A model generated the notes under the pieces. The model ran no database searches. It saw nothing but the letters and a program-made list of their open reading frames with translations, and was not told the origin of the DNA. Of a stretch of 64,000 nucleotides of DNA, positions 759 to 32,495 are shown piece by piece. How positions within the stretch are numbered: the stretch's first letter is position 1; the number at the start of each line of letters is the position of its first letter. The position numbers and the translations under genes were made by a program. The stretch is taken from contig OZ024741.1 of the NCBI GenBank assembly GCA_964016885.1, positions 5,146,001 to 5,210,000 of the forward strand. The letters run 5' to 3'. This DNA is from Eledone cirrhosa. Taxonomy: Eukaryota.

Positions 759-762
759 TTTC

Positions 763-4413: not shown

Positions 4414-4448
4414 GTTTAAAATAGAGTGGAAAAGATGGGAAAGACCAC

Positions 4449-6553: not shown

Positions 6554-6771
6554 GTTGTTTTTTTTTTGTTTAAAATAAATATTGGGCACAAAACCCCAAT
6601 AAGCAGTTATTTAACCCCGAAGGGTCAATTAACGGGCAGAAAGACCCCTCTGACGGGGAGGAGGGTGTCTTTGTCTACAAGTTCGTTAAAGTTTTAAACA
6701 ATTTACAATTGTTATAGCGTTCAAAATTTACAATACCTTACAGAGCCGAGCCTCCGTCAACCATAGCATTC

Positions 6772-6792
6772 AATAATAATAATAATAATAAT
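6772..6792. repeat. (AAT)7 microsatellite, right flank of the Tx1-like element and outer end of foldback 1
   Basis: Read directly from the sequence. Confidence 0.97.
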
Positions 6793-6796
6793 GTCC

Positions 6797-6915
6797 GTTT
6801 ACAATTGTTTCGCTACTCCATATAATATTTCTGGATCAAATGACTATATATCATTATTGATCTGGTTCAGTTGAAAATAATTAACATATTTAAAGACAGA
6901 GCGGCTCATCGGAAC
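6797..6915 (-). ncRNA. Second, inverted copy of the same hammerhead motif
   Basis: Minus strand reads GTT-CCGATGA-GCCGCTCT...GGAGTAGC-GAAA-CAATTG-TA-AAC. This copy keeps the G-C pair closing helix II. Confidence 0.6.
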
Positions 6916-7139
6916 TTCAAAGGAATATAAATTAAAATAAGGAAAGAATGTTACATAATGCAGTGTTCCATATATTGGTATTTCACTATGGTGTCCTGGG
7001 TGTATCAATTGTCTGCCATAATCAAGCAGTATTCATCTGTCGAGGCTGCATTGTGTGAAATCTGTCTATTGAAATACCAATATATCGAATATTACATTAT
7101 GTAACATTCTTTCCTTATTTTAATTTATATTCCTTTGAA

Positions 7140-7258
7140 GTTCCGATGAACCGCTCTGTCTTTAAATATGTTAATTATTTTCAACTGAACCAGATCAATA
7201 ATGATATATAGTCATTTGATCCAGAAATATTATATGGAGTAGCGAAACAATTGTAAAC
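7140..7258 (+). ncRNA. Minimal type-I hammerhead ribozyme motif, variant core CCGAUGA, enlarged helix II
   Basis: GTT-CCGATGA(7143-7149)-ACCGCTCT...GGAGTAGC-GAAA(7244-7247)-CAATTG-TA-AAC. Helix III is palindromic, the cleavage triplet is GUA, and helix I is only 3 bp. Confidence 0.55.
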
Positions 7259-7386
7259 GGACATTATTATTATTAATATTATTATTATTATTCTCTACAT
7301 TCCTTACATCAAACTAAAATATGTTGACAATCTTTTAATAATGTCTTCCTTGTGAAATTTGTGGTCTTGTTTTGCTTAACTAATGA

Positions 7387-7440
7387 ATATATATATCTAT
7401 ATCTATATCTATATCTATATGTGTGTCTGTGTGTGTGTAT
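7387..7440. repeat. Compound (TA)/(ATATCT)/(GT) microsatellite
   Basis: Read directly from the sequence. Confidence 0.85.
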
Positions 7441-7860
7441 TTCAAGTTGTATATAGCTATGGTATGACCACACTTAGAATTTGCATCACCGATCTGCTCA
7501 GAATATTGAACTCCTGGAAACTGTTCAGAAACATGTAACCAAGCGAATACCTTCCATCAGGCATCTAACATACTCTGAATGGCTTGCTTCTCTGGGCATG
7601 GATACATTGAAGCTCCGACGTCTGGCAACTGACTTGGTAGACAACCACAACATTATTAATCATCTTGCCAACAACAACCCAGATCACCTTTTTGAATTCC
7701 ATGTGTCTAACACACGTGGGCATACCCACAATGTCAGAAAACAGCGCAGCTCCCATGACATTTAGAAACATTTTTTCACACTCAGAGTTTCTGAAGCATG
7801 GAACAAACTCCCTGCATCAATTGTTAGCTATCGAGACACTGCATCCTTTAAAACCTCCAT
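7441..7860 (+). mobile_element. Decayed, 5'-truncated CR1-group LINE ORF2 C-terminal fragment
   Basis: Translates across frameshifts as FKLYIAMV*PHLEFASP...LLETVQKHVTKRIPSIRHLTYSEWLASLGMDTLKLRRLATDL...NTRGH...KHFFTLRVSEAWNKLPASIVS..DTASFKTSM. This matches the CR1/L2-group C-terminal pattern (LY..LVRPHLEY, LE.VQ, RR...DL, TRGH, FF..RV...WN.LP). Confidence 0.85.
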
Positions 7861-10800
7861 GGAACAAACTACATGCATCAGTTGTTAGCTGTCGAGACAC
7901 TGCATCATTTAAAACCTCCATGGAACAAACTCCCTGCATCAGTTGTTAGCTATCGAGACACTGCATCCTTTAAAACTGCCATGGAACAAACTATCTGCAT
8001 CAGTTGTTAGCTGTCGAGACACTGCATCCTTTAAAACCTCCATGGAACAAACTACATGCATCAGTTGTTAGCTGTTCAGACACTGCATCCTTTAAAACCT
8101 CCATGGAACAAACTACCTGCATCAGTTATTAGCTGTCGAGACACTGCATCCTTTAAAACCTCCATGGAACAAATTACCTGCATCAGTTGTTAGCTGTCGA
8201 GACGCTGCATCATTTAAAACCTCCATGGAACAAACTACCTGCATCAGTTGTTAGCTGTCGAGACACTGCATCCTTTAAAACCTCCATGGAACAAATTACC
8301 TGCATCAGTTGTTAGCTGTCGAGACACTGCATCCTTTAAAACCTCCATGGAACAAACTACCTTCATCAGTTGTTAGCTGCCGAGACACTGCATCCTTTAA
8401 AACCTCAATGGAACAAACTACCTTCTTCAGTTGTTAGCTGTCGAGACACTGCATCCTTTAAAACCTCCATGGAACAAACTACCTGCATCAGTTGTTAGCT
8501 GTCGAGACACTGCATCCTTTAAAACCTCCATGGAACAAATTACCAGCACCAGTTGTTAGCTGTCGAGACACTGGATCCTTTAAAACCTCCATAGAACAAA
8601 CTACCTTCATCAGTTGTAAGCTGTCGAGACACTGCATCCTTTAAAACCTCCATGGAACAAACTATCTGCATCAGTTGTTAGCTGTCGAGACACTGCATCC
8701 TTTAAAACCTCCATGGAACAAACTACCTTCATCAGTTGTTAGCTGTCGAGACACTGCATCCTTTAAAACCTCCATGGAACAAACTACCTTCATCAGTGGT
8801 TAGCTGTCGAGACACTGCATCCTTTAAAACCTCAATGGAACAAACTACATTCTTCAGTTGTTAGCTGTCGAGACACTGCATCCTTTAAAACCTCCATGGA
8901 ACAAACTACCTGCATCAGTTGTTAGCTGTCGAGACACTGCATCCTTTAAAACCTCCATGGAACAAACTACCAGCACCAGTTGTTAGCTGTCGAGACACTG
9001 GATCCTTTAAAACCTCCATGGAACAAACTACCTTCATCAGTTGTAAGCTGTCGAGACACTGCATCCTTTAAAACCTCCATGGAACAAACTATCTGCATCA
9101 GTTGTTAGCTGTCGAGACACTGCATCCTTTAAAACCTCCATGGAACAAACTACCTTCATCAGTTGTAAGCTGTCGGGACACTGCATCCTTTAAAACCTCC
9201 ATGGAACAAACTATCTGCATCAGTTGTTAGCTGTCGAGACACTGCATCCTTTAAAACCTCCATGGAACAAACTACCTTCATCAGTTGTTAGCTGTCGAGA
9301 CACTGCATCCTTTAAAACCTCCATGGAACAAACTACCTTCATCAGTTGTTAGCTGTCGAGACACTGGATCCTTTAAAACCTCCATGGAACAAACTACCTT
9401 CTTCAGTTGTTAGCTGTCGAGACACTGCATCCTTTAAAACCTCCATGGAACAAACTACCTGCATCAGTTGTTAGCTGTCGAGACACTGCATCCTTTAAAA
9501 CCTCCATGGAACAAACTACCTTCATCAGTTGTTAGCTGTCGAGACACTGCATCCTTTAAAACCTCCATGGAACAAACTACCTGCATCAGTTGTTAGCTGT
9601 CGAGACACTGCATCCTTAAAAACCTCCATGGAACAAACTACCTGTATCAGGTGTTAGCTGTCGAGACACTGCATCCTTTAAAACCTCCATGGAACAAACT
9701 ACCTTCTTCAGTTGTTAGCTGTCGAGACACTGCATCCTTTAAAACCTCCATGGAACAAACTACCTTCATCAGTTGTTAGCTGTCGAGACACTGGATCCTT
9801 TAAAACCTCCATGGAACAAACTACCTTCTTCAGTTGTTAGCTGTCGAGACACTGCATCCTTTAAAACCTCCATGGAACAAACTACCTGCATCAGTTGTTA
9901 GCTGTCGAGACACTGCATCCTTTAAAACCTCCATGGAACAAACTACCTGCATCAGTTGTTAGCTGTCGAGACACTGCATCCTTTAAAACCTCCATGGAAC
10001 AAACTACCTGCATCAGTTGTTAGCTGTCGAGACACTGCATCCTTAAAAACCTCCATGGAACAAACTACCTGCATCAGTTGTTAGCTGTCGAGACACTGCA
10101 TCCTTTAAAACCTCCATGGAACAAACTACCTTCATCAGTTGTTAGCTGTCGAGACACTGCATCCTTTAAAACCTCCATGGAACAAACTACCTTCATCAGT
10201 TGTTAGCTGTCGAGACACTGCATCCTTTAAAACCTCCATGGAACAAACTACCTGCATCAGTTGTTAGCTGTCGAGACACTGCATCCTTAAAAACCTCCAT
10301 GGAACAAACTACCTGTATCAGGTGTTAGCTGTCGAGACACTGCATCCTTTAAAACCTCCATGGAACAAACTACCTTCTTCAGTTGTTAGCTGTCGAGACA
10401 CTGCATCCTTTAAAACCTCCATGGAACAAACTACCTTCATCAGTTGTTAGCTGTCGAGACACTGGATCCTTTAAAACCTCCATGGAACAAACTACCTTCT
10501 TCAGTTGTTAGCTGTCGAGACACTGCATCCTTTAAAACCTCCATGGAACAAACTACCTGCATCAGTTGTTAGCTGTCGAGACACTGCATCCTTTAAAACC
10601 TCCATGGAACAAACTACCTGCATCAGTTGTTAGCTGTCGAGACACTGCATCCTTTAAAACCTCCATGGAACAAACTACCTGCATCAGTTGTTAGCTGTCG
10701 AGACACTGCATCCTTAAAAACCTCCATGGAACAAACTACCTGCATCAGTTGTTAGCTGTCGAGACACTGCATCCTTTAAAACCTCCATGGAACAAACTAC

Positions 10801-11154
10801 CTTCATCAGTTGTTAGCTGTCGAGACACTGCATCCTTTAAAACCTCCATGGAACAAACTACCTGCATCAGTTGTTAGCTGTCGAGACACTGCATCCTTAA
10901 AAACCTCCATGGAACAAACTACCTGTATCAGGTGTTAGCTGTCGAGACACTGCATCCTTTAAAACCTCCATGGAACAAACTACCTTCTTCAGTTGTTAGC
11001 TGTCGAGACACTGCATCCTTTAAAACCTCCATGGAACAAACTACCTTCATCAGTTGTTAGCTGTCGAGACACTGGATCCTTTAAAACCTCCATGGAACAA
11101 ACTACCCTCATCAGTTGTTAGCTGTCGGGACACTGCATCTTTAAAACCTCCATG
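7797..11154 (+). repeat. 61-bp tandem satellite, ~55 copies
   Basis: Consensus CATGGAACAAACTACCTGCATCAGTTGTTAGCTGTCGAGACACTGCATCCTTTAAAACCTC. The array begins and ends with CATG. Confidence 0.97.
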
Positions 11155-11160
11155 TTTCCT

Positions 11161-11225
11161 GTCAAGTACCAGTCAAGTACCAGTCAGGTACCAGTCAAGT
11201 ACTGGTCGAGTACAAGTCAAGTACC
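11161..11225 (+). repeat. 11-bp minisatellite (GTCAAGTACCA), ~6 copies, linking the two large arrays
   Basis: GTCAAGTACCA GTCAAGTACCA GTCAGGTACCA GTCAAGTACTG GTCGAGTACAA GTCAAGTACC. Confidence 0.9.
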
Positions 11226-14200
11226 CCATTCCAACAGTCCTCCATTCCACTACTTTCTAGGTCTACCTCTTCCAACAGTCCTCCATTACTCCTTTCTAGG
11301 TATACCTCTTCCCACAGTCCTCCATTCCACTCCTTTCTAGGTCTACTTCTTCCCACAGTCCTCCATTCCACTCCTTTCTAGGTCTACCCCTTCCAACAGT
11401 CCTCCATTACTCCTTTCTAGGTATACCTCTTCCGACAGACCTCCATTCCACCCTTTCTAGGTCTACCTCTTCCAACAGTCCCCCATTCCACTCCTATCTA
11501 GGTCTACCTCTTCCAACAGTCCTCCATTCCACACCTTTCTAGGACTAACTCTTCCAACAGTCCCCGATTCCACTCCTTTCTAGGTTTACCTCTTCCAACA
11601 GTCCCCCATTACTCCTTTCTAGGTCTACCTCTTCCAAAAGTCCTCCATTCCACTCCTTTCTAGGTCTACCTCTTCCAACAGTCCTCCATTACTCCTTTCT
11701 AGGTATACCTCTTCCCACAGACCCCCATTCCACTCCTTTCTAGGTATACCTCTTCCCACAGTCCTCCATTACACTCCTTTCTAGATCTACCTCTTCCAAC
11801 CGTCCTCCATTCCACTCCTTTCTAGGTCTACCTCTTCCAACTGTCCTCCATTAATCCTTTCTAGGTCTACCTCTTCCAACAGTCCTCCATTCCATTCCTT
11901 TCGAGGTCTACCTCTTCCAACAGTCCTCCCTTCCACACCTTTCTAGGTCTACCTCTTCCAACAGTCCCCCATTACACTCCTTTCTAGGTCTACCTCTTCC
12001 AACAGTCCTCCATTCCACTCATTTCTAGGTCTACCTCTTCCAACAGTCCTCCATTCCACTCCTTTCTAGGTCTACCTCTTCCAACAGTCCCCCATTACAC
12101 TCCTTTCTAGGTCTACCTCTTCCAACAGTCCCCCATTACACTCCTTTCTAGGTCTACCTCTTCCAACAGTCCTCCATTCCACTCCTTTCTAGGTCTACCT
12201 CTTCCAACAGTCCCCCATTACACTCCTTTCTAGGTCTACCTCTTCCAACAGTCCTCCATTCCACTCCTTTCTAGGTCTACCTCTTCCCACAGTCCCCCAT
12301 TCCACTCCTTTCTAGGTCTACCTCTTCCCACAGTCCTCCATTCCACTCCTTTCTAGGTCTACCTCTTCCAACAGTCCTCCATTCCACTCCTTTCTAGGTC
12401 TACCTCTTCCAACAGTCCTCCATTCCACTCCTTTCTAGGTCTACCTCTTCCAAAAGTCCTCCATTCCACTGCTTTCTAGGTCTACCTCTTCCAACAGTCC
12501 TCCATTCCACTCCTTTCTAGGTCTACCTCTTCCAACAGTCCTCCATTCCACTCCTTTCTAGGTCTACCTCTTCCAACAGTCCTCCATTCCACTCCTTTCT
12601 AGGTCTACCTCTTCCCACAGTCCTCCATTCCACACCTTTCTAGGACTACCTCTTCCAACAGTCCCCCATTCCACTCCTTTCTAGGTCTACCTCTTCCCAC
12701 AGTCCTCCACCCCACACCTTTCTAGGTCTACCTCTTCCAACAGTCCTCCATTCCACTCCTTTCTAGGTCCAACTCTTCCAACAGTCCTCCATTCCACTTC
12801 TTTCTAGGTCTACCTCTTCCAACAGTCCCCCATTCCACTCCTTTCTAGGTCTACCTCTTCCCACAGTCCTCCACCCCACACCTTTCTAGGTCTACCTCTT
12901 CCAACAGTCCTCCATTCCACTCCTTTCTAGGTCTACCTCTTCCCACAGTCCTCCATTCCACTCCTTTCTAGGTCTACCTCTTCCCACAGTCCTCCATTCC
13001 ACACCTTTCTAGGTCTACCTCTTCCAACAGTCCTCCATTCCACTCCTTTCTAGGTCTACCGCTTCCCACAGTCCTCCATTCCACACCTTTCTAGGTCTAC
13101 CTCTTCCAACAGTCCGCCATTCCACTCCTTTCTAGGTCTACCTCTTCCAACAGTCCTCCATTCCACACCTTTCTAGGTCTACCTCTTCCCACAGTCCTCC
13201 ATTAATCCTTTCTAGGTCTACCTCTTCCCACAGTCCTCCATTCCACTCCTTTCTAGGTCTACCTCTTCCAACAGTCCCCCATTCCACACCTTTCTAGGAC
13301 TACCTCTTCCCACAGTCCTCCATTAATCCTTTCTAGGTCTACCTCTTCCCACAGTCCTCCATTCCACTCCTTTCTAGGTCTACCTCTTCCAACAGTCCTC
13401 CATTCCACACCTTTCTAGGTCTACCTCTTCCCACAGTCCTCCATTAATCCTTTCTAGGTCTACCTCTCCCAACAGTCCTCCATTCCACTCCTTTCTAGGT
13501 CTACCTCTTCCAACAGTCCTCCATTCCACACCTTTCTAGGTCTACCTCTTCCCACAGTCCTCCATTAATCCTTTCTAGGTCTACCTCTCCCAACAGACCT
13601 CCATTCCACTCCTTTCTAGGTCTACCTCTTCCAACAGTCCTCCATTCCACTCCTTTCTAGGACTACCTCTTCCCACAGTCCTCCATTCCACACCTTTCTA
13701 GGTCTACCTCTCCCAACAGTCCTACATTCCACTCCTTTCTAGGTTTACCTCTTCCAACAGTCCGCCATTCCACACCTTTCTAGGTCTACCTCTTCCCACA
13801 GTCTTCCATTCCACTCCTTTCTAGGTCTACCTCTTCCCACAGTCCTCCATTCCACTCCTTTCTAGGACTACCCCTCCCAACAGTCCCCCATTCCACTCCT
13901 TTCTAGGTCTACCTCTTCCAACAGTCCTCTATTCCACTCCTTTCTAGGTCTACCTCTTCCAACAGTCCTCCATTCCACTCCTTTCTAGGTCTACCTCTTC
14001 CAACAGTCCTCCATTCCACTCCTTTCTAGGTCTACCTCTTCCAACAGTCCTCCATTCCACTCCTTTCTAGGTCTACCTCTTCCAACAGTCCTCCATTCCA
14101 CTCCTTTCTAGGTCTACCTCTTCCAACAGTCCTCCATTCCACTCCTTTCTAGGTCTACCTCTTCCAACAGTCCCCCATTCCACTCCTTTCTAGGTCTACC

Positions 14201-17200
14201 TCTTCCAACAGTCCTCCATTCCACTCCTTTCTAGGTCTACCTCTTCCAACAGTCCTCCATTCCACTCCTTTCTAGGTCTACCTCTTCCAACAGTCCCCCA
14301 TTCCACTCCTTTCTAGGTCTACCTCTTCCCACCGTCCTCCATTCCACACCTTTCTAGGTCTACCTCTCCCAACAGTCCTCCATTCCACACCTTTCTAGGT
14401 CTACCTCTTCCAACAGTCCTCCATTCCACACCTTTCTAGGTCTACCTCTTCCCACAGTCATCCATTCCACTCCTTTCTAGGTCTACCTCTTCCCACAGTC
14501 CTCCATACCACTCCTTTCTAGGACTACCTCTTCCCACAGTCCTCCATTCCACTCCTTTCAAGGACTACCTCTTCCCACAGTCCTCTATTCCACTCCTTTC
14601 TAGGACTACCTCTCCCAACAGTCCTCCATTCCACTCCTTTCTAGGTCTACCTCTTCCCACAGTCCTCCATTCCACTCCTTTCTAGGACTACCTCTTCCCA
14701 CAGTCCTCTATTCCACTCCTTTCTAGGACTACCACTCCCAACAGTCCTCCATTCCACTCCTTTCTAGGTCTACCTCTTCCCACAGTCCTCCATTAATCCT
14801 TTCTAGGTCTACCTCTTCCCACAGTCCTCCATTCCACTCCTTTCTAGGTCTACCTCTTCCCACAGTCCTCCATTCCACTCCTTTCTAGGTCTACCTCTTC
14901 CAACAGTCCTCCATTAATCCTTTCTAGGTCTACCTCTTCCATCAGTCCTCCATTCCACACCTTTCTAGGTCTACCTCTTCCCACAGTCCTCCATTAATCC
15001 TTTCTAGGTTTACCTCTTCCCACAGTCCTCCATTCCACTCCTTTCTAGGTCTACCTCTTCCCACAGTCCTCCATTAATCCGTTCTAGGTCTACCTCTTCC
15101 CACAGTCCTCCATTAATCCTTTCTAGGTCTACCTCTTCCCACGGTCCTCCAATCCACTCCTTTCTAGGTCTACCTCTTCCCACAGTCCTCCATTAATCCT
15201 TTCTAGGACTACCTCTTCCAACAGTCCTCCATTCCACTCCTTTCTAGGTCTACCTCGTCCCACAGTCCTCCAATCCACTCCTTTCTAGGTCTACCTCTTC
15301 ACACAGTCCTCCATTCCACTCCTTTCTAGGTCTACCTCTTCCCACAGTCCTCCATTCCACTCCTTTCTAGGTCTACCTCTTCCAACAGTCCTCCATTAAT
15401 CCTTTCTAGGTCTACCTCTTCCAACAGTCCTCCATTCCACACCTTTCTAGGTCTACCTCTTCCCACAGTCCTCCATTAATCCTTTCTAGGTTTACCTCTT
15501 CCCACAGTCCTCCATTCCACTCCTTTCTAGGTCTACCTCTTCCCACAGTCCTCCATTCCACTCCTTTCTAGGTCTACCTCTTCCAACAGTCCTCCATTCC
15601 ACACCTTTCTAGGTCTATCTCTTCCCACAGTCCTCCATTAATCCTTTCTAGGTTTACCTCTTCCCACAGTCCTCCATTCCACTCCTTTCTAGGTCTACCT
15701 CTTCCCACAGTCCTCCATTCCACTCCTTTCTAGGTCTACCTCTTCCAACAGTCCTCCATTCCACACCTTTCTAGGTCTACCTCTTCCCACAGTCCTCCAT
15801 TAATCCTTTCTAGGTCTACCTCTTCCCACAGTCCTCCAATCCACTCCTTTCTAGGTCTACCTCTTCCCACAGTCCTCCAATCCACTCCTTTCTAGGTCTA
15901 CCTCTTCCCACAGTCCTCCATTCCACTCCTTTCTAGGTCTACCTCTTCCCACAGTCCTCCATTCCACTCCTTTCTAGGTCTACCTCTTCCCACAGTCCTC
16001 CATTCCACACCTTTCTAGGTCTACCTCTTCCAACAGTCCTCCATTCCACTCCTTTCTAGGTCTACCTCTTCCAACAGTCCTCCATTCCACTCCTTTCTAG
16101 GTCTACCTCTCCCACAGTCCTCCATTCCACTCCTTTCTAGGTCTACCTCTCCCAACAGTCCTCCATTCCACTCCTTTCTAGGTCTACCTCTCCCAACAGT
16201 CCTCCATTCCACTCCTTTCTAGGTCTACCTCTTCCAACAGTCCTCCATTCCACTCCTTTCTAGGTCTACTTCTCCCAACAGTCCTCCATTCCACACCTTT
16301 CTAGGACTACCTCTTCCAACAGTCCCCCATTCCACTCCTTTCTAGGTCTACCTCTTCCAACAGTCCTCCATTCCACTCCTTTCTAGGACTACCTCTCCCA
16401 ACAGTCCTCCATTCCACACCTTTCTAGGTCTACCTCTCCCAACAGTCCTCCATTCCACTACTTTCTAGGTCTACCTCTTCCAACAGTCCTCCATTCCACA
16501 CCTTTCTAGGACTACCTCTCCCAACAGTCCTCCATTCCACTCCTTTCTAGGTCTACCTCTTCCAACAGTCCTCCATTCCACACCTTTCTAGGACTACCTC
16601 TTCCAACAGTCCCCCATTCCACTCCTTTCTAGGTCTACCTCTCCCAACAGTCCTCCATTCCACTCCTTTCTAGGTCTACCTCTTCCCACAGTCCTCCATT
16701 CCACACCTTTCTAGGTCTACCTCTTCCAACAGTCCCCCATTCCACTCCTTTCTAGGTCTACCTCTCCCAACAGTCCTCCATTCCACTCCTTTCTAGGACT
16801 ACCTCTTCCAACAGTCCCCCATTCCACTCCTTTCTAGGTCTACCTCTCCCAACAGTCCTCCATTCCACTCCTTTCTAGGTCTACCTCTCCCAACAGTCCT
16901 CCATTCCACTCCTTTCTAGGTTTACCTCTTCCAACAGTCCCCCATTCCACTCCTTTCTAGGTCTACCTCTTCCAACAGTCCTCCATTCCACACCTTTCTA
17001 GGTCTACCTCTTCCAACAGTCCTCCATTCCACTCCTTTCTAGGACTACCTCTTCCAACAGTCCCCTATTCCACTCCTTTCTAGGTCTACCCCTCCCAACA
17101 GTCCTCCATTCCACTCCTTTCTAGGACTACCTCTCCCAACAGTCCCTGATTCCACTCCTTTCTAGGTCTACCTCTCCCAACAGTCCTCCATTCCACACCT

Positions 17201-20200: not shown

Positions 20201-23200
20201 CCTCTTCCAACAGTCCTCCATTCCACTCCTTTCTAGGTCTACCTCTTCCAACAGTCCTCCATTAATCCTTTCTAGGTCTACCTCTTCCCACAGTCCCCCA
20301 TTCCACTCCTTTCTAGGTCTACCTCTTCCAACAGTCCTCCATTCCACTCCTTTCTAGGTCTACCTCTTCCCACAGTCCTCCATTCCACTCCTTTCTAGGA
20401 CTACCTCTTCCAACAGTCCCCCATTCCACTCCTTTCTAGGTCTACCTCTCCCAACAGTCCTCCATTCCAATTCTTTCTAGGTCTACCTCTTCCCACAGTC
20501 CTCCATTCCACTCCTTTCTAGGACTACCTCTTCCAACAGTCCGCCATTCCACTCCTTTCTAGGTCTACCTCTTCCCACAGTGCCCCATTCCACTCCTTTC
20601 TAGGTCTACCTCTTCCAACAGTCCTCCATTCCACTCCTTTCTAGGTCTACCTCTTCCCACAGTCCCCCATTCCACTCCTTTCTAGGTCTACCTCTTCCAA
20701 CAGTCCTCCATTCCACTCCTTTCTAGGTCTACCTCTTCCCACAGTCCTCCATTCCACTCCTTTCTAGGACTACCTCTTCCAACAGTCCCCCATTCCACTC
20801 CTTTCTAGGTCTACCTCTCCCAACAGTCCTCCATTCCAATCCTTTCTAGGTCTACCTCTTCCCACAGTCCTCCATTCCACTCCTTTCTAGGACTACCTCT
20901 TCCAACAGTCCCCCATTCCACTCCTTTCTAGGTCTACCTCTCACAACAGTCCTCCATTCCACTCCTTACTAGGTCTACCTCTCCTAACAGTCCTCCATTC
21001 CACTCCTTTCTAGGTCTACCTCTTCCAACAGTCCTCCATTCCACTCCTTTCTAGGTCTACCTCTTCCCACAGTCATCCATTCCACTCCTTTCTAGGTCTA
21101 CCTCTTCCAACAGTCCTCCATTCCACTCCTTTCTAGGTCTACCTCTTCCCACAGTCATCCATTCCACTCCTTTCTAGGACTACCTCTTCCAACAGTCCTC
21201 CAATCCAATCCTTTCTAGGACTACCTCTTCCCACAGTCCTCCATTCCACTCCTTTCTAGGACTACCTCTTCCCACAGTCCTCCATTACTACTTTCTAGGT
21301 CTACCTCTTCCAACAGTCCCCCATTCCACTCCTTTCTAGGTCTACCTCTTCCAACAGTCCTCAATTCCACTCCTTTCTAGGTCTACCTCTTCCCACAGTC
21401 CTCCATTCCACTCCTTTCTAGGTCTACCTCTTCAACAGTCCTCCATTCCACACCTTTCTAGGACTACCTCTTTCAACAGTCCCCCATTCCACTCCTTTCT
21501 AGGACTACCTCTTCCAACAGTCCCCCATTCCACTACTTTCTAGGTCTACCTATTCCAACAGTCCTCCATTCCACTCCTTTCTAGGTCTACCTCTTCCCAC
21601 AGTCCTCCATTCCACACCTTTCTAGGACTACCTCTTCCAACAGTCCCCCATTCCACTCCTTTCTAGGTCTACCTCTCCCAACAGTCCTCCATTCCACTCC
21701 TTTCTAGGTCTACCTCTTCCAACAGTCCTCCATTCCACTCCTTTCTAGGTCTACCTCTTCCAACAGTCCCCCATTCCACTCCTTTCTAGGACTACCTCTT
21801 CCAACAGTCCCCCATTCCACACCTTTCTAGGACTACCACTCCCAACAGTCCTCCATTCCACTCCTTTCTAGGTCTACCTCTTCCAACAGTCCTCCATTCC
21901 ACTCCTTTCTAGGTCTACCTCTTCCAACAGTCCCCCATTCCACTCCTTTCTAGGACTACCTCTTCCAACAGTCCCCCATTCCACACCTTTCTAGGACTAC
22001 CTCTTTCAACAGTCCCCCATTCCACTCCTTTCTAGGACTACCTCTTCCAACAGTCCCCCATTCCACTACTTTCTAGGTCTACCTATTCCAACAGTCCTCC
22101 ATTCCACTCCTTTCTAGGTCTACCTCTTCCCACAGTCCTCCATTCCACACCTTTCTAGGACTACCTCTTCCAACAGTCCCCCATTCCACTCCTTTCTAGG
22201 TCTACCTCTCCCAACAGTCCTCCATTCCACTCCTTTCTAGGTCTACCTCTTCCAACAGTCCCCCATTCCACTCCTTTCTAGGACTACCTCTCCCAACAGT
22301 CCTCCATTCCACTCCTTTCTAGGTCTACCTCTTCCAACAGTCCTCCATTCCACTCCTTTCTAGGTCTACCTCTTCCCACAGTCCTCCATTCCACACCTTT
22401 CTAGGACTACCTCTTCCAACAGTCCCCCATTCCACTCCTTTCTAGGTCTACCTCTCCCAACAGTCCTCCATTCCACTCCTTTCTAGGTTTACCTCTTCCA
22501 ACAGTCCCCCATTCCACTCCTTTCTAGGTCTACCTCTCCCAACAGTCCTCCATTCCACTCCTTTCTAGGTTTACCTCTTCCAACAGTCCCCCATTCCACT
22601 CCTTTCTAGGTCTACCTCTTCCCACAGTCCTCCATTCCACACCTTTCTAGGACTACCTCTTCCAACAGTCCCCCATTCCACTCCTTTCTAGGTCTACCTC
22701 TCCCAACAGTCCTCCATTCCACTCCTTTCTAGGTCTACCTCTTCCAACAGTCCTCCATTCCACTCCTTTCTAGGTCTACCTCTTCCCACAGTCCTCCATT
22801 CCACACCTTTCTAGGACTACCTCTTCCAACAGTCCCCCATTCCACTCCTTTCTAGGTCTACCTCTCCCAACAGTCCTCCATTCCACTCCTTTCTAGGTTT
22901 ACCTCTTCCAACAGTCCCCCATTCCACTCCTTTCTAGGTCTACCTCTCCCAACAGTCCTCCATTCCACTCCTTTCTAGGTTTACCTCTTCCAACAGTCCC
23001 CCATTCCACTCCTTTCTAGGTCTACCTCTTCCCACAGTCCTCCATTCCACACCTTTCTAGGACTACCTCTTCCAACAGTCCCCCATTTTACTCCTTTCTA
23101 GGTCTACCTCTCCCAACAGTCCTCCATTCCACTCCTTTCTAGGTTTACCTCTTCCAACAGTCCCCCATTCCACTCCTTTCTAGGTCTACCTCTTCCCACA

Positions 23201-26200
23201 GTCCTCCATTCCACACCTTTCTAGGACTACCTCTTCCAACAGTCCCCCATTCCACTCCTTTCTAGGTCTACCTCTCCCAACAGTCCTCCATTCCACTCCT
23301 TTCTAGGACTACCTCTTCCAACAGTCCCCTATTCCACTCCTTTCTAGGTCTACCTCTCCCAACAGTCCTCCATTCCACTCCTTTCTAGGTCTACCTCTTC
23401 CAACAGTCCTCCATTCCACACCTTTCTAGGTCTACCTCTCCCAACAGTCCTCCATTCCACTCCTTTCTAGGACTACCTCTTCCAACAGTCCCCTATTCCA
23501 CTCCTTTCTAGGTCTACCTCTCCCAACAGTCCTCCTTTCCACTCCTTTCTAGGTCTACCTCTTCCCACAGTCCTCCATTCCACACCTTTCTAGGTCTACC
23601 TCTTCCAACAGTCCTCCATTCCACTCCTTTCTAGGTCTACCTCTCCCAACAGTCCTCCATTCCACTCCTTTCTAGGTCTACCTCTCCCAACAGTCCTCCA
23701 TTCCACACCTTTCTAGGACTACCTCTTCCAACAGTCCTCCATTCCACACCTTTCTAGGACTACCTCTTCCAACAGTCCCCCATTCCACTCCTTTCTAGGT
23801 CTACCTCTCCCAACAGTCCTCCATTCCACTCCTTTCTAGGTCTACCTCTCCCAACAGTCCTCCATTCCACTCCTTTCTAGGTCTACCTCTTCCAACAGTC
23901 CTCCATTCCACACCTTTCTAGGTCTACCTCTTCCAACAGTCCTCCATTCCACTCCTTTCTAGGTCTACCTCTCCCAACAGTCTTCCATTCCACACCTTTC
24001 TAGGACTACCTCTTCCAACAGTCCTCCATTCCACACCTTTCTAGGACTACCTCTTCCAACAGTCCTCCATTCCACTCCTTTCTAGGTCTACCTCTCCCAA
24101 CAGTCCTCCATTCCACACCTTTCTAGGACTACCTCTTCCAACAGTCCTCCATTCCACACCTTTCTAGGACTACCTCTTCCAACAGTCCTCCATTCCACAC
24201 CTTTCTAGGTCTACCTCTTCCCACAGTCCTCCATTCCACACCTTTCTAGGTCTACCTCTCCCAACAGTCCTCCATTCCACTCCTTTCTAGGTCTACCTCT
24301 TCCAACAGTCCTCCATTCCACACCTTTCTAGGTCTACCTCTTCCAACAGTCCTCCATTCCACTCCTTTCTAGGTCTACCTCTCCCAACAGTCTTCCATTC
24401 CACACCTTTCTAGGACTACCTCTTCCCACAGTCCTCCATTCCACTCCTTTCTAGGTCTACCTCTCCCAACAGTCCTCCATTCCACTCCTTTCTAGGTCTA
24501 CCTCTCCCAACAGTCCTCCATTCCACACCTTTCTAGGACTACCTCTTCCAACAGTCCCCCATTCCACTCCTTTCTAGGCCTACCTCTCCCAACAGTCCTC
24601 CATTCCACTCCTTTCTAGGTCTACCTCTCCCAACAGTCCTCCATTCCACACCTTTCTAGGACTACCTCTTCCCACAGTCCTCCATTCCACTCCTTTCTAG
24701 GTCTACCTCTTCCAACAGTCCTCCATTCCACTCCTTTCTAGGTCTACCTCTCCCAACAGTCCTCCATTCCACTCCTTTCTAGGTCTACCTCTCCCAACAG
24801 TCCTCCATTCCACTCCTTTCTAGGTCTACCTCTCCCAACAGTCCTCCATTCCACTCCTTTCTAGGTCTACCTCTTCCAACAGTCCTCCATTCCACTCCTT
24901 TCTAGGTCTACCTCTCCCAACAGTCCTCCATTCCACACCTTTCTAGGACTACCTCTTCCAACAGTCCCCCATTCCACTCCTTTCTAGGTCTACCTCTCCC
25001 AACAGTCCTCCATTCCACTACTTTCTAGGTCTACCTCTTCCAACAGTCCTCCATTCCACACCTTTCTAGGACTACCTCTCCCAACAGTCCTCCATTCCAC
25101 TCCTTTCTAGGTCTACCTCTTCCAACAGTCCTCCATTCCACACCTTTCTAGGACTACCTCTTCCAACAGTCCCCCATTCCACTCCTTTCTAGGTCTACCT
25201 CTCCCAACAGTCCTCCATTCCACTCCTTTCTAGGTCTACCTCTTCCCACAGTCCTCCATTCCACACCTTTCTAGGTCTACCTCTTCCAACAGTCCCCTAT
25301 TCCACTCCTTTCTAGGTCTACCTCTTCCAACAGTCCTCCATTCCACACCTTTCTAGGTCTACATCTTCCAACAGTCCTCCATTCCACACCTTTCTAGGAC
25401 TACCTCTTCCAACAGTCCCCCATTCCACTCCTTTCTAGGTCTACCTCTCCCAACAGTCCTCCATTCCACTCCTTTCTAGGTCTACCTCTTCCAACAGTCC
25501 TCCATTCCACTCCTTTCTAGGTCTACCTCTCCCAACAGTCCTCCATTCCACTCCTTTCTAGGTTTACCTCTTCCAACAGTCCCCCATTCCACTCCTTTCT
25601 AGGTCTACCTCTTCCAACAGTCCCCCATTCCACTCCTTTCTAGGTCTACCTCTTCCAACAGTCCTCCATTCCACACCTTTCTAGGTCTACCTCTTCCAAC
25701 AGTCCCCTATTCCACTCCTTTCTAGGTCTACCTCTCCCAACAGTCCTCCATTCCACTCCTTTCTAGGTCTACCTCTTCCAACAGTCCTCCATTCCACTCC
25801 TTTCTAGGTCTACCTCTCCCAACAGTCCTCCATTCCACTCCTTTCTAGGTTTACCTCTTCCAACAGTCCCCCATTCCACTCCTTTCTAGGTCTACCTCTT
25901 CCAACAGTCCCCCATTCCACTCCTTTCTAGGTCTACCTCTTCCAACAGTCCTCCATTCCACACCTTTCTAGGTCTACCTCTTCCAACAGTCCCCTATTCC
26001 ACTCCTTTCTAGGTCTACCTCTCCCAACAGTCCTCCATTCCACTCCTTTCTAGGTCTACCTCTTCCAACAGTCCTCCATTCCACTCCTTTCTAGGTCTAC
26101 CTCTCCCAACAGTCCTCCATTCCACTCCTTTCTAGGTCTACCTCTTCCAACAGTCCCCCATTCCACTCCTTTCTAGGTCTACCTCTTCCAACAGTCCTCC

Positions 26201-29200
26201 ATTCCACACCTTTCTAGGTCTACCTCTTCCAACAGTCCTCCATTCCACTCCTTTCTAGGTCTACCTCTTCCAACAGTCCTCCATTCCACTCCTTTCTAGG
26301 TCTACCTCTCCCAACAGTCCTCCATTCCACTCCTTTCTAGGTTTACCTCTTCCAACAGTCCTCCATTCCACTCCTTTCTAGGTCTACCTCTTCCAACAGT
26401 CCTCCATTCCACACCTTTCTAGGTCTACCTCTTCCAACAGTCCTCCATTCCACACCTTTCTAGGTCTACCTCTTCCAACAGTCCTCCATTCCACACCTTT
26501 CTAGGTCTACCTCTTCCAACAGTCCTCCATTCCACTCCTTTCTAGGTCTACCTCTTCCAACAGTCCTCCATTCCACACCTTTCTAGGTCTACCTCTTCCA
26601 ACAGTCCCCTATTCCACTCCTTTCTAGGTCTACCTCTTCCAACAGTCCTCCATTCCACTCCTTTCTAGGTCTACCTCTTCCAACAGTCCTCCATTCCACA
26701 CCTTTCTAGGTCTACCTCTTCCAACAGTCCCCTATTCCACTCCTTTCTAGGTCTACCTCTTCCAACAGTCCTCCATTCCACACCTTTCTAGGTCTACCTC
26801 TTCCAACAGTCCTCCATTCCACACCTTTCTAGGTCTACCTCTTCCAACAGTCCTCCATTCCACTCCTTTCTAGGTCTACCTCTTCCAACAGTCCTCCATT
26901 CCACACCTTTCTAGGTCTACCTCTTCCAACAGTCCTCCATTCCACTCCTTTCTAGGTCTACCTCTTCCAACAGTCCTCCATTCCACACCTTTCTAGGTCT
27001 ACCTCTTCCAACAGTCCTCCATTCCACTCCTTTCTAGGTCTACCTCTTCCAACAGTCCTCCATTCCACTCCTTTCTAGGTCTACCTCTTCCAACAGTCCT
27101 CCATTCCACTCCTTTCTAGGTCTACCTCTTCCAACAGTCCTCCATTCCACACCTTTCTAGGTCTACCTCTTCCAACAGTCCCCCATTACACTCCTTTCTA
27201 GGTCTACCTCTTCCAACAGTCCTCCATTCCACTCCTTTCTAGGTCTACCTCTTCCAACAGTCCTCCATTCCACTCCTTTCTAGGTCTACCTCTTCCAACA
27301 GTCCTCCATTCCACACCTTTCTAGGTCTACCTCTTCCAACAGTCCCCTATTCCACTCCTTTCTAGGTCTACCTCTCCCAACAGTCCTCCATTCCACTCCT
27401 TTCTAGGACTACCTCTTCCAACAGTCCCCTATTCCACTCCTTTCTAGGACTACCTCTTCCAACAGTCCTCCATTCCACTCCTTTCTAGGTCTACCTCTTC
27501 CAACAGTCCTCCATTCCACACCTTTCTAGGTCTACCTCTTCCAACAGTCCTCCATTCCACACCTTTCTAGGTCTACCTCTTCCAACAGTCCTCCATTCCA
27601 CTCCTTTCTAGGTCTACCTCTCCCAACAGTCCTCCATTCCACTCCTTTCTAGGACTACCTCTTCCAACAGTCCTCCATTCCACTCCTTTCTAGGTCTACC
27701 TCTTCCAACAGTCCTCCATTCCACTCCTTTCTAGGTCTACCTCTTCCAACAGTCCTCCATTCCACACCTTTCTAGGTCTACCTCTTCCAACAGTCCCCTA
27801 TTCCACTCCTTTCTAGGTCTACCTCTCCCAACAGTCCTCCATTCCACTCCTTTCTAGGACTACCTCTTCCAACAGTCCCCTATTCCACTCCTTTCTAGGA
27901 CTACCTCTTCCAACAGTCCTCCATTCCACTCCTTTCTAGGTCTACCTCTTCCAACAGTCCTCCATTCCACACCTTTCTAGGTCTACCTCTTCCAACAGTC
28001 CTCCATTCCACACCTTTCTAGGTCTACCTCTTCCAACAGTCCTCCATTCCACTCCTTTCTAGGTCTACCTCTTCCAACAGTCCTCCATTCCACTCCTTTC
28101 TAGGTCTACCTCTTCCAACAGTCCCCTATTCCACTCCTTTCTAGGACTACCTCTTCCAACAGTCCCCTATTCCACTCCTTTCTAGGACTACCTCTTCCAA
28201 CAGTCCCCTATTCCACTCCTTTCTAGGACTACCTCTTCCAACAGTCCTCCATTCCACTCCTTTCTAGGTCTACCTCTTCCAACAGTCCTCCATTCCACAC
28301 CTTTCTAGGTCTACCTCTTCCAACAGTCCTCCATTCCACACCTTTCTAGGTCTACCTCTTCCAACAGTCCTCCATTCCACACCTTTCTAGGTCTACCTCT
28401 TCCAACAGTCCTCCATTCCACTCCTTTCTAGGTCTACCTCTTCCAACAGTCCTCCATTCCACTCCTTTCTAGGTCTACCTCTTCCAACAGTCCCCTATTC
28501 CACTCCTTTCTAGGACTACCTCTTCCAACAGTCCCCTATTCCACTCCTTTCTAGGACTACCTCTTCCAACAGTCCCCTATTCCACTCCTTTCTAGGACTA
28601 CCTCTTCCAACAGTCCTCCATTCCACTCCTTTCTAGGTCTACCTCTTCCAACAGTCCTCCATTCCACACCTTTCTAGGTCTACCTCTTCCAACAGTCCTC
28701 CATTCCACACCTTTCTAGGTCTACCTCTTCCAACAGTCCCCCATTCCATACCTTTCTAGGTCTACCTCTTCCAACAGTCCTCCATTCCACTCCTTTCTAG
28801 GTCTACCTCTTCCAACAGTCCTCCATTAATCCTTTCTAGGTCTACCTCTTCCAACAGTCCTCCATTCCACTCCTTTCTAGGTCTACCTCTTCCAACAGTC
28901 CTCCATTCCACACCTTTCTAGGTCTACCTCTTCCAACAGTCCTCCATTCCACTCCTTTCTAGGACTACCTCTCCCAACAGTCCCCTATTCCACTCCTTTC
29001 TAGGTCTACCTCTCCCAACAGTCCTCCATTCCACTCCTTTCTAGGACTACCTCTTCCAACAGTCCCCTATTCCACTCCTTTCTAGGACTACCTCTTCCAA
29101 CAGTCCTCCATTCCACTCCTTTCTAGGACTACCTCTTCCAACAGTCCCCTATTCCACTCCTTTCTAGGTCTACCTCTCCCAACAGTCCTCCATTCCACTC

Positions 29201-29876
29201 CTTTCTAGGACTACCTCTTCCAACAGTCCCCTATTCCACTCCTTTCTAGGACTACCTCTTCCAACAGTCCTCCATTCCACTCCTTTCTAGGTCTACCTCT
29301 TCCAACAGTCCTCCATTCCACTCCTTTCTAGGTCTACCTCTTCCAACAGTCCCCCATTCCATACCTTTCTAGGTCTACCTCTTCCAACAGTCCTCCATTC
29401 CACACCTTTCTAGGTCTACCTCTTCCAACAGTCCTCCATTAATCCTTTCTAGGTCTACCTCTTCCAAGAGTCCTCCATTCCACTCCTTTCTAGGTCTACC
29501 TCTTCCAACAGTCCTCCATTAATCCTTTCTAGGTCTACCTCTTCCAACAGTCCTCCATTCCACACCTTTCTAGGTCTACCTCTTCCAACAGTCCTCCATT
29601 CCACTCCTTTCTAGGTCTACCTCTTCCAACAGTCCTCCATTCCACACCTTTCTAGGTCTACCTCTTCCAACAGTCCTCCATTAATCCTTTCTAGGTCTAC
29701 CTCTTCCAACAGTCCTCCATTCCACTCCTTTCTAGGTCTACCTCTTCCAACAGTCCTCCATTCCACTCCTTTCTAGGTCTACCTCTTCCAACAGTCCCCC
29801 ATTCCACACCTTTCTAGGTCTACCTCTTCCAACAGTCCCCCATTCCACTCCTTTCTAGGTCTACCTCTCCCAACAG
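11226..29876 (+). repeat. 41-bp tandem satellite, roughly 455 copies, with interspersed 39-bp variants
   Basis: Consensus CCATTCCACTCCTTTCTAGGTCTACCTCTTCCAACAGTCCT. The + strand is strongly C/T-rich. Confidence 0.97.
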
Positions 29877-29918
29877 CAACTCTGAGCGTGAAAAAATGTT
29901 CCCTAAAGCTCCCATAAC
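29874..29918 (-). mobile_element. Short CR1-group fragment abutting the 41-bp array
   Basis: Minus strand TTTAGGGAACATTTTTTCACGCTCAGAGTTGCTG (FREHFFTLRVA) aligns to 7761-7793 TTTAGAAACATTTTTTCACACTCAGAGTTTCTG. Confidence 0.75.
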
Positions 29919-29926
29919 TAATTAAA

Positions 29927-30002
29927 TATATAGATATACACACATACGTATATATATATACACACACACATACATATATATATATACACACACACATACA
30001 TA

Positions 30003-30040
<38 letters not shown>

Positions 30041-30165
30041 CATACACATATATACATACACATGCCCACATAATCACATACATATATATAATGAGAGAGT
30101 GATGCAGACACATACACACATACATGTATGCATACGCATACACATGCTTATATATATATATATAT
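29927..30165. repeat. Compound (TA)n/(CA)n microsatellite region
   Basis: Read directly from the sequence. Confidence 0.9.
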
Positions 30166-30531
30166 CTTTAGGTATGTTGGTTCACCACTGGATAGAACTA
30201 GTCATTCCGTATGGTCAATCTTGGTGTAATATTATGGAGAGTACTCAACGTAGTGCAGTTCACCCGTCTTCGTTTGTGTAGTCGGTGGTGCGAATACGGA
30301 TTTAATTACAAACGGAGTTAATTATAAACTAAACCCTTTTTCTTTGACGGAGAGGTGGTAGTGCATTATAAGCCTTCGCCCCCTCACCAGATGGTCATTA
30401 GTAGATTCAGTTGCCATCACTTTGAGGGCGACTGGCCGAGGTGAAGGCAGCTAGCTGGTCAGTCGTCCTCTTTGTCTCTGTCTCTGATTTTTCGGACCCA
30501 TGGTTTTTTACATATTCCTTGTTATATTCCA

Positions 30532-30589
30532 ATACCTGATGATATCACCGGATTCATATGGAACCCGGTCATTGAAATGATCATAGTAT
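30532..30589 (+). ncRNA. Minimal type-I hammerhead ribozyme motif with canonical core, followed by AATAAA
   Basis: ATAC-CTGATGA(30536-30542)-TATCACCGGATTC atatg GAACCCGGTCATT-GAAA(30574-30577)-TGATCA-TA-GTAT, then AATAAA at 30590-30595. Helix I is ATAC/GTAT, helix III is palindromic, the triplet is AUA. Confidence 0.7.
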
Positions 30590-30653
30590 AATAAACCTTT
30601 CAAGGATTTACACCAGTCCAGCCTCCTGTTATTTTATTTATATATATATATAT

Positions 30654-30980
30654 AATATAAAACGAAAAATCAGTGATGCATCTGGACTCAATTTATTGTG
30701 TTACAATTGTTTCGCCGGCAGACAGCTTGAGACACGATCATTGTATGGATCTGTCTGATTCTGGAACTGCAGGTTCGTCGGACACTGGCAATAATTCCGG
30801 ATCAAATTTTCTCACTGGGGGTGTTAGTGTCAACAAATATCTTCCTCGCTTGTCCTGCTATTGGCTGTTGTTTTGTGAGAAAATCATACAATGATCGTGT
30901 CTCGAGCTGTCGGCCGGCGAAACAATTGTAACACACAATAAATTGAGTCCAGATGCATCACTGATTTTTCGTTTTATATT
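30654..30980. mobile_element. Foldback 2: ~95-bp inverted repeats; probable Penelope-like terminal-repeat remnant
   Basis: 30654-30747 is the reverse complement of 30885-30980. The arms contain GCGAAACAATTGTAAC followed by AATAAA. Confidence 0.75.
30698..30785 (-). ncRNA. Minimal type-I hammerhead motif, variant core CCGACGA, enlarged helix II
   Basis: Minus strand reads GTGT-CCGACGA-ACCTGCAG...CTGCCGGC-GAAA-CAATTG-TA-ACAC-AATAAA. Helix I is GTGT/ACAC, the triplet is GUA. Confidence 0.62.
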
Positions 30981-31056
30981 CTATCACACTCTGCTCTGTA
31001 AGAACAGAGTGCTCAACCGGCATACCGCCTATGGAAGCATCATAGCTACCATCAGA

Positions 31057-31057
31057 T

Positions 31058-31126
<69 letters not shown>
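31057..31126. repeat. (CA)n(TA)n microsatellite
   Basis: Read directly from the sequence. Confidence 0.95.
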
Positions 31127-31129
<3 letters not shown>

Positions 31130-31649
31130 ATGATATTAATAAATGGAAGCTGTATTTATAAAACCATATTTATTTTATTATATATATTTAAAGACTTTCG
31201 TCAAATCGGACCGAGGGAACAATGTTTCCGTTGGTCTTTCCATTTGCTAACACATCTATCGGTCGCAACTCCAGGTAGAAGGAGCAACGTGAAATAAAGT
31301 GTCTTGCTCAAGGACATAGCCACACGCCTTCCTGGACCAGGCGATGCGTTATGTCCTTGAGCAAGACACTTTATTTCACGTTGCTCCTTCTACCTGGAGT
31401 TGCGACCGATAGAGAGTATTAGCAATTGGAAAGACCAACGGAAACATTGTTCCCTCGGTCCGATTTGACGAAAGTCGATCGTTCCTTTATATTTAAAGAG
31501 TACCAAAATTTTGGTACGGTCTCATCAGATAAAATACAAAATTTGTTTTATAAATGTTGACATACACAAGAAACCAGACCTTGAAATATATATAATAAAA
31601 TAAATATGGTTTTATAAATGTAGTTTCTATTTATTAATATCATTGATAT
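31124..31649. repeat. Foldback 3: nested inverted repeats (outer 31124-31193/31580-31649; inner 31194-31318/31350-31475)
   Basis: Both arm pairs were checked by reverse complement. The inner arms contain the SINE-type motif GTCCTTGAGCAAGACACTTTA. Confidence 0.85.
31475..31528 (-). ncRNA. Truncated hammerhead remnant (5' core and helix II only)
   Basis: Minus strand reads CTGATGA-GACCGT-[two sub-hairpins]-ACGATC-GA, cut within GAAA by the inner inverted repeat. Confidence 0.45.
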
Positions 31650-32295: not shown

Positions 32296-32495
32296 AACAC
32301 GGTAAAAAGTTCCCAGTTCCACACTGTAAATGTGGTTGGTGTTAGGAAGGGCATCCAGCCGTAGAAAACCTGCCAGATAGTCCTATATGAGCGAGACACG
32401 TCACCCGATCAATCTTGCCTCAAGTGGGACAACTCCCGTCTAACCCATGCTGGCATGGAAGATAGACATTAAACGGTGATGATGATGATGATGAT
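32296..32495 (+). mobile_element. SINE/LINE 3' end with (GAT)n tail, copy 1 (RTE-type tail suspected)
   Basis: CCACACTGTAAATGTGGTTGG..TTAGGAAGGGCATCCAGC.GTAGAAA...CTAACCCATGC..GC.TGGAA...TTAAA..GTGATGATGAT is shared with the copy at 32683-32889. Confidence 0.7.

Follow-up and report, generated by a model that had tools for sequence, protein, structure and literature searches.

What are the hammerhead-like motifs that stand at foldbacks in a satellite-rich stretch of Eledone cirrhosa DNA, and to which kind of element do they belong? The stretch that we analyzed (hereafter the window) comprises 64,000 nt of contig OZ024741.1 (positions 5,146,001-5,210,000, forward strand). Most of it is filled by three satellites with units of 61, 41 and 50 nt, and about 12 kb are non-satellite DNA. 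An earlier note on this DNA had described four unrelated minimal hammerhead ribozyme motifs tied to foldback elements and had assigned them to several Penelope-like or retrozyme-like families. We find that the four motifs, here called M1 to M4, represent two types, M1/M3 and M2/M4. They are probably located in the 5'-truncated 3' ends of four families of Penelope-like elements (PLEs), each carrying a minimal type I hammerhead near its end and inserted by the mechanism proposed below.

The motifs were located with a strict descriptor consisting of helix I (3-4 Watson-Crick pairs), CYGANGA, GAAA, a 6-nt palindrome, UA and helix I'. Scanning the window returned exactly four hits, both copies of M1 as well as M2 and M3, with the layout and at the positions given for them in the earlier note (Table 1). 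Local dinucleotide shuffles of 12,260 non-satellite bases contained no strict hit (0/300); with the palindrome rule dropped, at least one hit was found in 14 of 300 shuffles and four hits in none, figures to be read with a descriptor that was written from the finding itself and with two of the four hits being one inverted duplicate (M1 counted twice). A less tailored test considered only GAAA followed by a 6-nt palindrome and UH. This combination is seen 6 times compared to a shuffle mean of 0.45, with none of 500 shuffles reaching 6, and all six sites belong to M1-M4 elements. Extended by four bases and AATAAA, it occurs three times and in none of 500 shuffles. The CYGANGA heptamer alone is uninformative with 20 sites in non-satellite DNA. 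Helix I has four different sequences, every one perfectly Watson-Crick paired, in line with the earlier argument that differing helices which still pair speak against chance. The motifs are not chance occurrences.

Standard searches miss these motifs, as had been expected. None of the 26 Rfam matches with E values of up to 5 is a hammerhead, those to MIR6027 and mir-297 stemming from a hairpin and from microsatellites and lying below the gathering score. The published descriptor for minimal hammerhead ribozymes (min-HHRs), which specifies cuganga, a 3-7-bp stem and a 3-10-nt loop (PMC4209133), was re-implemented and gave no hits in the window and none on M4 with its insert removed. Domain II in the window measures 26, 31, 61 and 94 nt, and the closing pair G10.1-C11.1 that also forms part of the helix II criterion is present in only one of five copies, M1(-). 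Pattern scans for the CCG-type motif returned 3 loci in viral contigs and 64 loci in metagenome contigs. In 40 of these 67 matches, helix I has no pair beyond the one that the pattern fixes; 25 have two pairs and 2 have three. BLASTN of the motif regions of the window against the 67 loci gave no hit, and the four best-looking loci, checked for open reading frames (ORFs), all lie within long bacterial-type coding frames. We treat the 67 matches as chance-like, with no homologue among them.

All four motifs follow the type I order of helix I, core, helix II, GAAA, palindromic helix III, UH and helix I', M4 only after removal of its insert. The 15.2-16.2 segment is palindromic in four of four motifs, represented by three different palindromes that each possess a central AT. 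Contrary to the description as unrelated, M1 and M3 have in common a CCG core and an identical 15-nt 3' block that spans GAAA-palindrome-UA, and they agree at 10 of 11 nt surrounding the core. Helix I has a different sequence in each of the two and is paired in both. These two are also the motifs for which a CCGANGA core, equivalent to a U4C exchange, had correctly been noted. M2 and M4 resemble each other in layout: CUGAUGA leads into four bases with weak pairing and a stem of 5 bp, GAAA is preceded by UU, and helix I has 4 bp with AAUAAA after it. The AATAAA reported to follow helix I' in two motifs is found in M2 and M3, and in M4 as well. The min-HHR core CUGANGA (or UUGANAA) is present in M2 and M4 and absent from M1 and M3, which carry C4, with position 6 being variable in the M3 family. 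Given their C4 core, M1 and M3 are classed as a variant and not as standard min-HHR members. C4 looks like an inherited family trait since it is common to two otherwise diverged families. M2 and M4 are near-standard hammerheads with a CUGA core and a 26-31-nt rod. M1 and M3 form a related variant lineage characterized by fixed C4, a weakened helix II base and a 61-94-nt domain II, for which slow cleavage is expected; these motifs may cut slowly or not at all.

Table 1. Positions of the hammerhead motifs, their elements and neighboring features in the window
Feature	Position	Strand	Description
Foldback 1	6772-7283		two head-to-head M1 element ends, 217-nt arms, 78-nt spacer, each outward into (ATT)n
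M1, left copy	6797-6915	minus	helix I of 3 bp, core CCGAUGA, domain II of 94 nt with closing pair G10.1-C11.1, GAAA, palindrome CAAUUG; cut predicted 3' of GUA (after 6800)
M1, right copy	7140-7258	plus	as left copy but A at 10.1 (A.C, like M3); predicted cut after 7255
M2 element end	30340-30640	plus	~190 nt upstream sequence, motif, 53-nt tail, (TA)n; depth profile
M2 motif	30532-30589	plus	helix I 4 bp, CUGAUGA, 31-nt domain II with U.U at base, GAAA, UGAUCA palindrome; predicted cut after AUA (after 30585); AAUAAA 30590-30595
High-copy piece	30160-30308	minus	read as an inverted copy ending at (TA)n; depth 49k-206k
M3 element, longer copy	30650-30874	minus	upstream sequence, motif, 47-nt tail, (TA)n joint with M2
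M3 motif	30698-30785	minus	helix I 4 bp, CCGACGA, 61-nt domain II, A.C at 10.1/11.1, GAAA, CAAUUG; predicted cut after GUA (after 30702); AAUAAA 30697-30692
M3, inverted 5'-truncated copy	30885-31055	plus	starts inside domain II, motif 3' half at 30919
M4 element, longer copy	31124-31579	minus	interrupted by insert; core at 31522-31528
M4 motif, 5' half	31532-31500	minus	helix I (4 bp), CUGAUGA, 26-nt domain II
M4 motif, 3' half	31194-31169	minus	U replaces G12, UAUAUA palindrome, UA, helix I', AAUAAA
Foldback insert in M4	31195-31487		293 bp, splits M4; flanked by 12-bp direct repeat 31183-31194 / 31488-31499
M4, inverted 5'-truncated copy	31580-31649	plus	intact GAAA (31583)-palindrome-UA-helix I'-AAUAAA half
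C-terminal frame	1-756		zinc-finger-like motif (weak zf-RVT match, E 0.0018) and PD-(D/E)xK-like stretch; ends in (AAT)10
L1/Tx1-type element	~1007-5873	minus	apurinic/apyrimidinic (AP)-endonuclease and reverse transcriptase frames; Pfam, ORFs
61-nt satellite	7478-11154		55 copies; tandem-repeat scan
Long satellites	11229-29876 and 34246-64000		41-nt units (456 copies), 50-nt units (594 copies); strong strand skew

The enlarged, branched helix II that had been ascribed to three of the motifs is in most cases a simple rod. Domain II of M3 folds into an unbranched rod (z -2.76, 2/200 shuffles as good), that of M2 into one unbranched hairpin (z -1.41, 18/200) and that of M4 likewise into an unbranched hairpin (z -3.67, 1/200). 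The second hairpin that gives M4 its branched look results from the duplicated target pairing with the insert end. For M1, the minimum free energy (MFE) structure is branched and no better than shuffles in either of its two copies (z -0.33 and +0.14, with 64/200 and 102/200 shuffles as good), the centroid retaining only the basal stem and one hairpin; branching is unproven here. Folded as a homodimer, M3 has a full dimeric hammerhead as its MFE structure, with an intermolecular helix III formed through the 8-nt palindrome, and the MFE structure of the M1 homodimer also pairs through the palindrome.

M4, previously regarded as truncated, is a complete motif split by an insert, with its 3' half located beyond the inserted 293 bp. 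The 12-nt direct repeat around the insert was reached by none of 2000 flank shuffles and represents a target-site duplication. M4 as a chance CUGANGA was considered and is ruled out by this duplication together with the matching 3' half. The insert is itself a head-to-head foldback, located at an AT-rich site inside the M4 hammerhead. Its center contains a B-box-like stretch and a central-domain motif that we take to be the one known from short interspersed nuclear elements (SINEs), and the insert may be a SINE-like RNA placed by PLE machinery. Inspection of the fold showed no helix I by eye and led us to reject a hammerhead concealed in the sense strand of this insert.

The abundance of two of the families was assessed with sequencing records aligned at >=80% identity, that is at least 80%, to 30160-31050 (891 nt, M2 and M3). 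Four of eight runs were used, X1 and X3 from one sample (5,283 and 5,634 contigs), X5 from a second organism, organism B (33 contigs), and X6, which consists of raw reads from restriction-site-associated DNA sequencing (7,462 records). Summed contig depth is not copy number, and the contrast is large: M2 peaks at 721k-760k over its 3' half (30580-30609), drops to 370k-407k at 30544 just past the core and to 8k-10k at 30400-30429, with the bin 30310-30339 at about 600, and M3 peaks at 343k-380k on its tail, with 10k-14k remaining at the core and about 2k further upstream. Both M2 and M3 are dispersed, high-copy families that occur in the second organism too. Depth falling toward the 5' end is the gradient expected of 5'-truncated retroposed copies; it may in part reflect subfamily divergence below 80% identity, with loose ends found at 30527, 30762 and 30785.

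The arrangement of the copies points in the same direction. M1, M3 and M4 are present in head-to-head pairs with their 3' ends facing outward into microsatellites. The hammerhead lies 53, 47 and 51 nt from (TA)n in M2, M3 and M4, respectively, while M1 runs into (ATT)n 4 nt beyond helix I' on both outward strands. Two traits of PLEs are found in the window, namely insertion at (TA)n or AT-rich microsatellites and a one-sided 3' extension, seen at 30985-31055 for M3 and at 30160-30308 for M2. The M3 extension of about 70 nt is present on the end of the plus-strand copy only, with a depth of 88k-111k over 30970-31050. Five paralogous contigs are colinear with the window from 30666-30743 to 30859-30874 with 13-28 differences, which identifies the minus-strand M3 copy as the long one and the sequence from 30885 onward as the short inverted copy. 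The plus arm as an internally deleted copy was rejected, the paralogous contigs being colinear on one strand to 30874. For M2, loose ends behind 30308 match the reverse complement of the M2 tail in 13 (X1) and 15 (X3) contigs, so that in other copies the tail is directly continued by the 30160-30308 piece, which reads as an optional 3' extension. We infer that 30160-30308 is the M2-family 3' extension, present to the left as an inverted copy, and that M2 is likewise part of an inverted pair. M2 and M3 meet tail to tail within one short (TA)n tract at 30640-30655.

Long inverted repeats, three of which are found here, would also be produced by DNA-level events, either foldbacks resembling miniature inverted-repeat transposable elements or assembly foldbacks, in which case the hammerhead letters would be incidental, as the frequency of CYGANGA on its own might suggest. 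We consider this most improbable, and the evidence largely refutes it. Instead of terminal repeats, the arms represent unequal copies of one strand with truncated 5' ends, no shuffle reaches the number of complete motifs or of 3' halves, and the families are dispersed in two organisms. An assembly artefact does not agree with arms that differ at several positions, one of them containing an insert with its own duplication. In foldback 1, the arms show 7 differences, 5 of which fall in the inner 30 nt. Its origin as a DNA-level duplication of the flank was tried and rejected, the right flank being unlike either left flank (scores 18 and 15). The tracts at 6772-6793 and 7263-7292 that border foldback 1 are both (ATT)n on their own sense strand and are consequently mutually inverted. 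This is unlike a plain target microsatellite and suggests that the (ATT)n tract is carried or added by the M1 element.

The same observations bear on the second half of the earlier assignment. Non-autonomous, non-LTR (long terminal repeat) retrozymes spread as short tandem units that give rise to hammerhead-processed circular RNAs, which are then re-inserted. The type I motif with a weak helix III and no ORF would fit such elements, and retrozymes are reported to derive from the pseudo-LTRs of PLEs (bioRxiv 10.64898/2026.07.22.740005). Copies in the window are however arranged as inverted pairs and not head to tail, none of 18 tandem-repeat rows spans a motif, and depth falls toward the 5' end instead of being flat across a unit. 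Retrozymes are thus a very unlikely explanation, and of the two assignments proposed earlier the Penelope-like one is favored by anatomy, insertion pattern and depth.

How PLE copies of this kind might arise can be outlined from published PLE biochemistry and from the pattern seen in the window. A protein encoded elsewhere, with reverse transcriptase (RT) and GIY-YIG domains, would cut AT-rich DNA on both strands. RT would start inside the RNA downstream of the hammerhead, at about 50 nt for M2-M4 or a few nt for M1, using one of two starts, and priming on both strands at the same RNA site could lead to outward-facing pairs. The product would be a long and a short 5'-truncated copy placed head to head, with an extension on one end only, as is seen in the sequence. 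The 8-nt palindrome (A15.1-U16.1) is predicted not to form helix III within one motif and to pair between two motifs of a tandem transcript. Cleavage after GUA or AUA is predicted to need a dimer and probably also the protein of the element. The transcript may be terminated by the AAUAAA that directly follows helix I'. Copies in the window are divergently oriented and cannot form a tandem, which makes them fossils. With no more than about 300 nt of each element present in the window, non-autonomous elements and truncated ends of autonomous ones are indistinguishable.

Several observations weigh against PLE ends with working hammerheads. In agreement with the earlier note, ORF scans and a Pfam analysis of 8 selected frames found no ORF for a PLE RT or GIY-YIG protein in the window, and the assignment to PLEs is accordingly an anatomical one. 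The MFE structures of the M2 and M4 homodimers are folds other than the hammerhead, and M2 and M3 misfold as monomers, with the core pairing with the palindrome. Sequence variants add to these points; the variant figures rest on 40 of 171 rows and are unphased, and some loose-end differences are absent from them, so that a missing row proves nothing. U takes the place of A at core position 6 of M3 in 48% of X1 depth and 55% of X3 depth, and in 65/132 and 293/426 X6 reads. U6 is also present in the sole X5 contig spanning the M3 motif, whose 7 differences over 30686-30785 are too few for a register shift. One M3 loose-end consensus (270 reads, agreement 0.65) implies an additional core nucleotide, and palindrome position 30925 differs in 133/164 and 23/53 X6 reads, though in only about 0.2% of X1 depth. 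Two of the five listed M3 domain II variants (30723 and 30912) fall on predicted pairs, the other three being unpaired; all 3 M2 domain II variants among those listed fall on positions unpaired in the MFE structure. Beside M3 helix I, the window has an A.A pair where aligned sequence, including that of organism B, commonly has a 5'-side C and a 3'-side G, and another M3 set has a 5'-side U opposite A. These unphased variants hint at covariation of the pairing beside helix I.

Replacement of A6 in about half of the aligned M3-family sequence, organism B included, weakens the case for an active ribozyme and brings up a different role for the M1/M3 motif. It could be a scaffold, either non-catalytic or strictly dependent on protein. 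Dimerization of the RNA or loading of RT would then be the reason why helix I, the palindrome and GAAA/UA are retained, the enlarged domain II would offer a binding site for a protein, and constraint on core positions 4, 6 and 10.1 would be relaxed. We hold this to be unlikely, if clearly less so than the other alternatives. In line with it are the C4 found in both families, the A.C combination that M3 and one M1 copy have at 10.1/11.1, and the loss of A6. On the other hand, C3/G8, G5, A9, G12-A15.1 and U16.1-A17, which are what hammerhead catalysis needs, are all present in the three window copies, and decayed copies or a single dead subfamily could be the source of U6, the variants being unphased and drawn from a part of the rows. 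According to PMC3088659, U4C brings activity down considerably and low activity is also seen with A6C or with an insertion behind A6, while a natural U4C viroid variant is active enough in vivo. PMC11167929 describes insertion by a PLE protein in vitro without need of catalysis and a ribozyme that cleaves only with protein. With C4 fixed, position 6 and 10.1/11.1 relaxed, domain II grown to 60-95 nt and selection still acting on helix I, palindrome, GAAA and UA, the M1/M3 lineage would be a PLE-borne hammerhead derivative that serves as an RNA-dimerization or RT-docking module, catalytic only with protein or never; we regard this reading as unlikely. If true, M1/M3-type motifs could explain part of the PLEs reported without hammerheads (e.g. 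Naiad 'HHR_half_core') and would offer a natural way to test if PLEs depend on the chemistry of the hammerhead or merely on its shape.

The remainder of the non-satellite DNA contains further retroelement sequence. The frame at 1-756 resembles what we take to be the end of an R4/Dong-type retroelement with a restriction-like endonuclease. The L1/Tx1-type element (757-6771) sits between (AAT)n tracts, one at 727-756 and one starting from 6772, as if it had inserted into the microsatellite of foldback 1. The 61-nt satellite starts within an open stretch that resembles the C-terminal end of ORF2 of a CR1/L2-type long interspersed nuclear element (LINE); Pfam assigned no family to this stretch, and the array looks like an amplified piece of a LINE 3' coding end. 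A short repeat of about 200 nt is present in two related copies at 32299-32497 and 32684-32890, which according to their alignment both end in (GAT)n. ARAGORN detected 0 tRNA genes.

Minimal hammerheads at PLE ends and inverted pairs at microsatellites are already known, and M2 and M4 alone would be ordinary. New is the C4-core lineage with a 61-94-nt domain II and a relaxed core. The M1/M3 lineage represents a natural experiment on the role of the hammerhead in PLEs, of which one whole clade seems to be without it, and CUGANGA descriptors with short stems undercount such motifs. A literature search returned no report of a C4-core PLE hammerhead family; one may be in print already, as Lunse et al. 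2017 on small PLE variants lay outside the search. As described in PMC4209133, min-HHRs possess a palindromic loop 3, occur as opposite-strand pairs 100-700 bp apart, are uncleaved as monomers and show low cleavage as dimers. The window motifs resemble them in their type I order, 3-4-bp helix I, palindrome, U-rich 5' and AU-rich 3' flanks, opposite-strand pairs and predicted need for a dimer. Several rows of the min-HHR alignment there also contain AAUAAA, and the D. willistoni row has the 6-nt-palindrome layout of M2. C4, in contrast, is found in 0 of the 44 alignment rows examined from the supplement of that source.

Non-LTR retrozymes, as described in PMC7229834 and bioRxiv 10.64898/2026.07.22.740005, share with the window elements a type I hammerhead, a weak helix III and their nature as non-coding animal repeats. 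They differ in forming circular RNAs and head-to-tail tandem units, every unit having its own hammerhead; tandem units are absent here, judging from the 18 tandem-repeat rows. Closer likenesses are found among PLEs. In PMC8557442, PLE copies are 5'-truncated, carry an inverted truncated copy at the 5' end, often have a one-sided tail and show a (TA)n bias, and eight Naiad families are flagged 'HHR_half_core' with core halves 35-50 nt apart. The window diagnostic motifs were not found at the hammerheads of the Naiad, Chlamys and Hydra consensi of that study, where line breaks could hide a match. Hydra-clade hammerheads (PMC8557442 File S2) share (TA)n targets, a motif near the 3' end, a 4-bp helix I and U.U at the base of helix II with the window motifs. 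A stem III of 3-4 pairs with a 0-3-nt loop in Hydra-clade and PLE-X1 motifs is a further likeness to the window motifs, and two PLE-X1 motifs have a loop 2 of about 30-35 nt, setting a precedent for a large domain II (PMC8557442 File S2). Unlike M1 and M3, all File S2 rows have a CUGA core (PMC8557442).

For the Poseidon PLE PAc of Anolis, PMC11167929 reports a protein that cuts 5'-ATT-3' on both strands and two internal RT starts, from which an optional tail results; its hammerhead requires protein to cleave and is not needed for in vitro insertion. AT-rich cutting of both strands combined with two RT starts, as described there, would account for the outward pairs and one-sided extensions observed here. 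PAc differs in having an ORF start inside stem II and a 30-40-nt tail, compared to no ORF start seen in the window and extensions of about 70 and 140 nt (PMC11167929). Among natural hammerhead variants, a stem II with a basal U.U is an established form (PMC3088659). The same source describes U4C in a viroid variant with much reduced in vitro activity that retains infectivity, and low activity for A6C or an insertion after A6. U4C is rare among the variants treated there, whereas in the window it is found in two diverged repeat families, one of them high-copy, and is accompanied by a long domain II and by variation at position 6.

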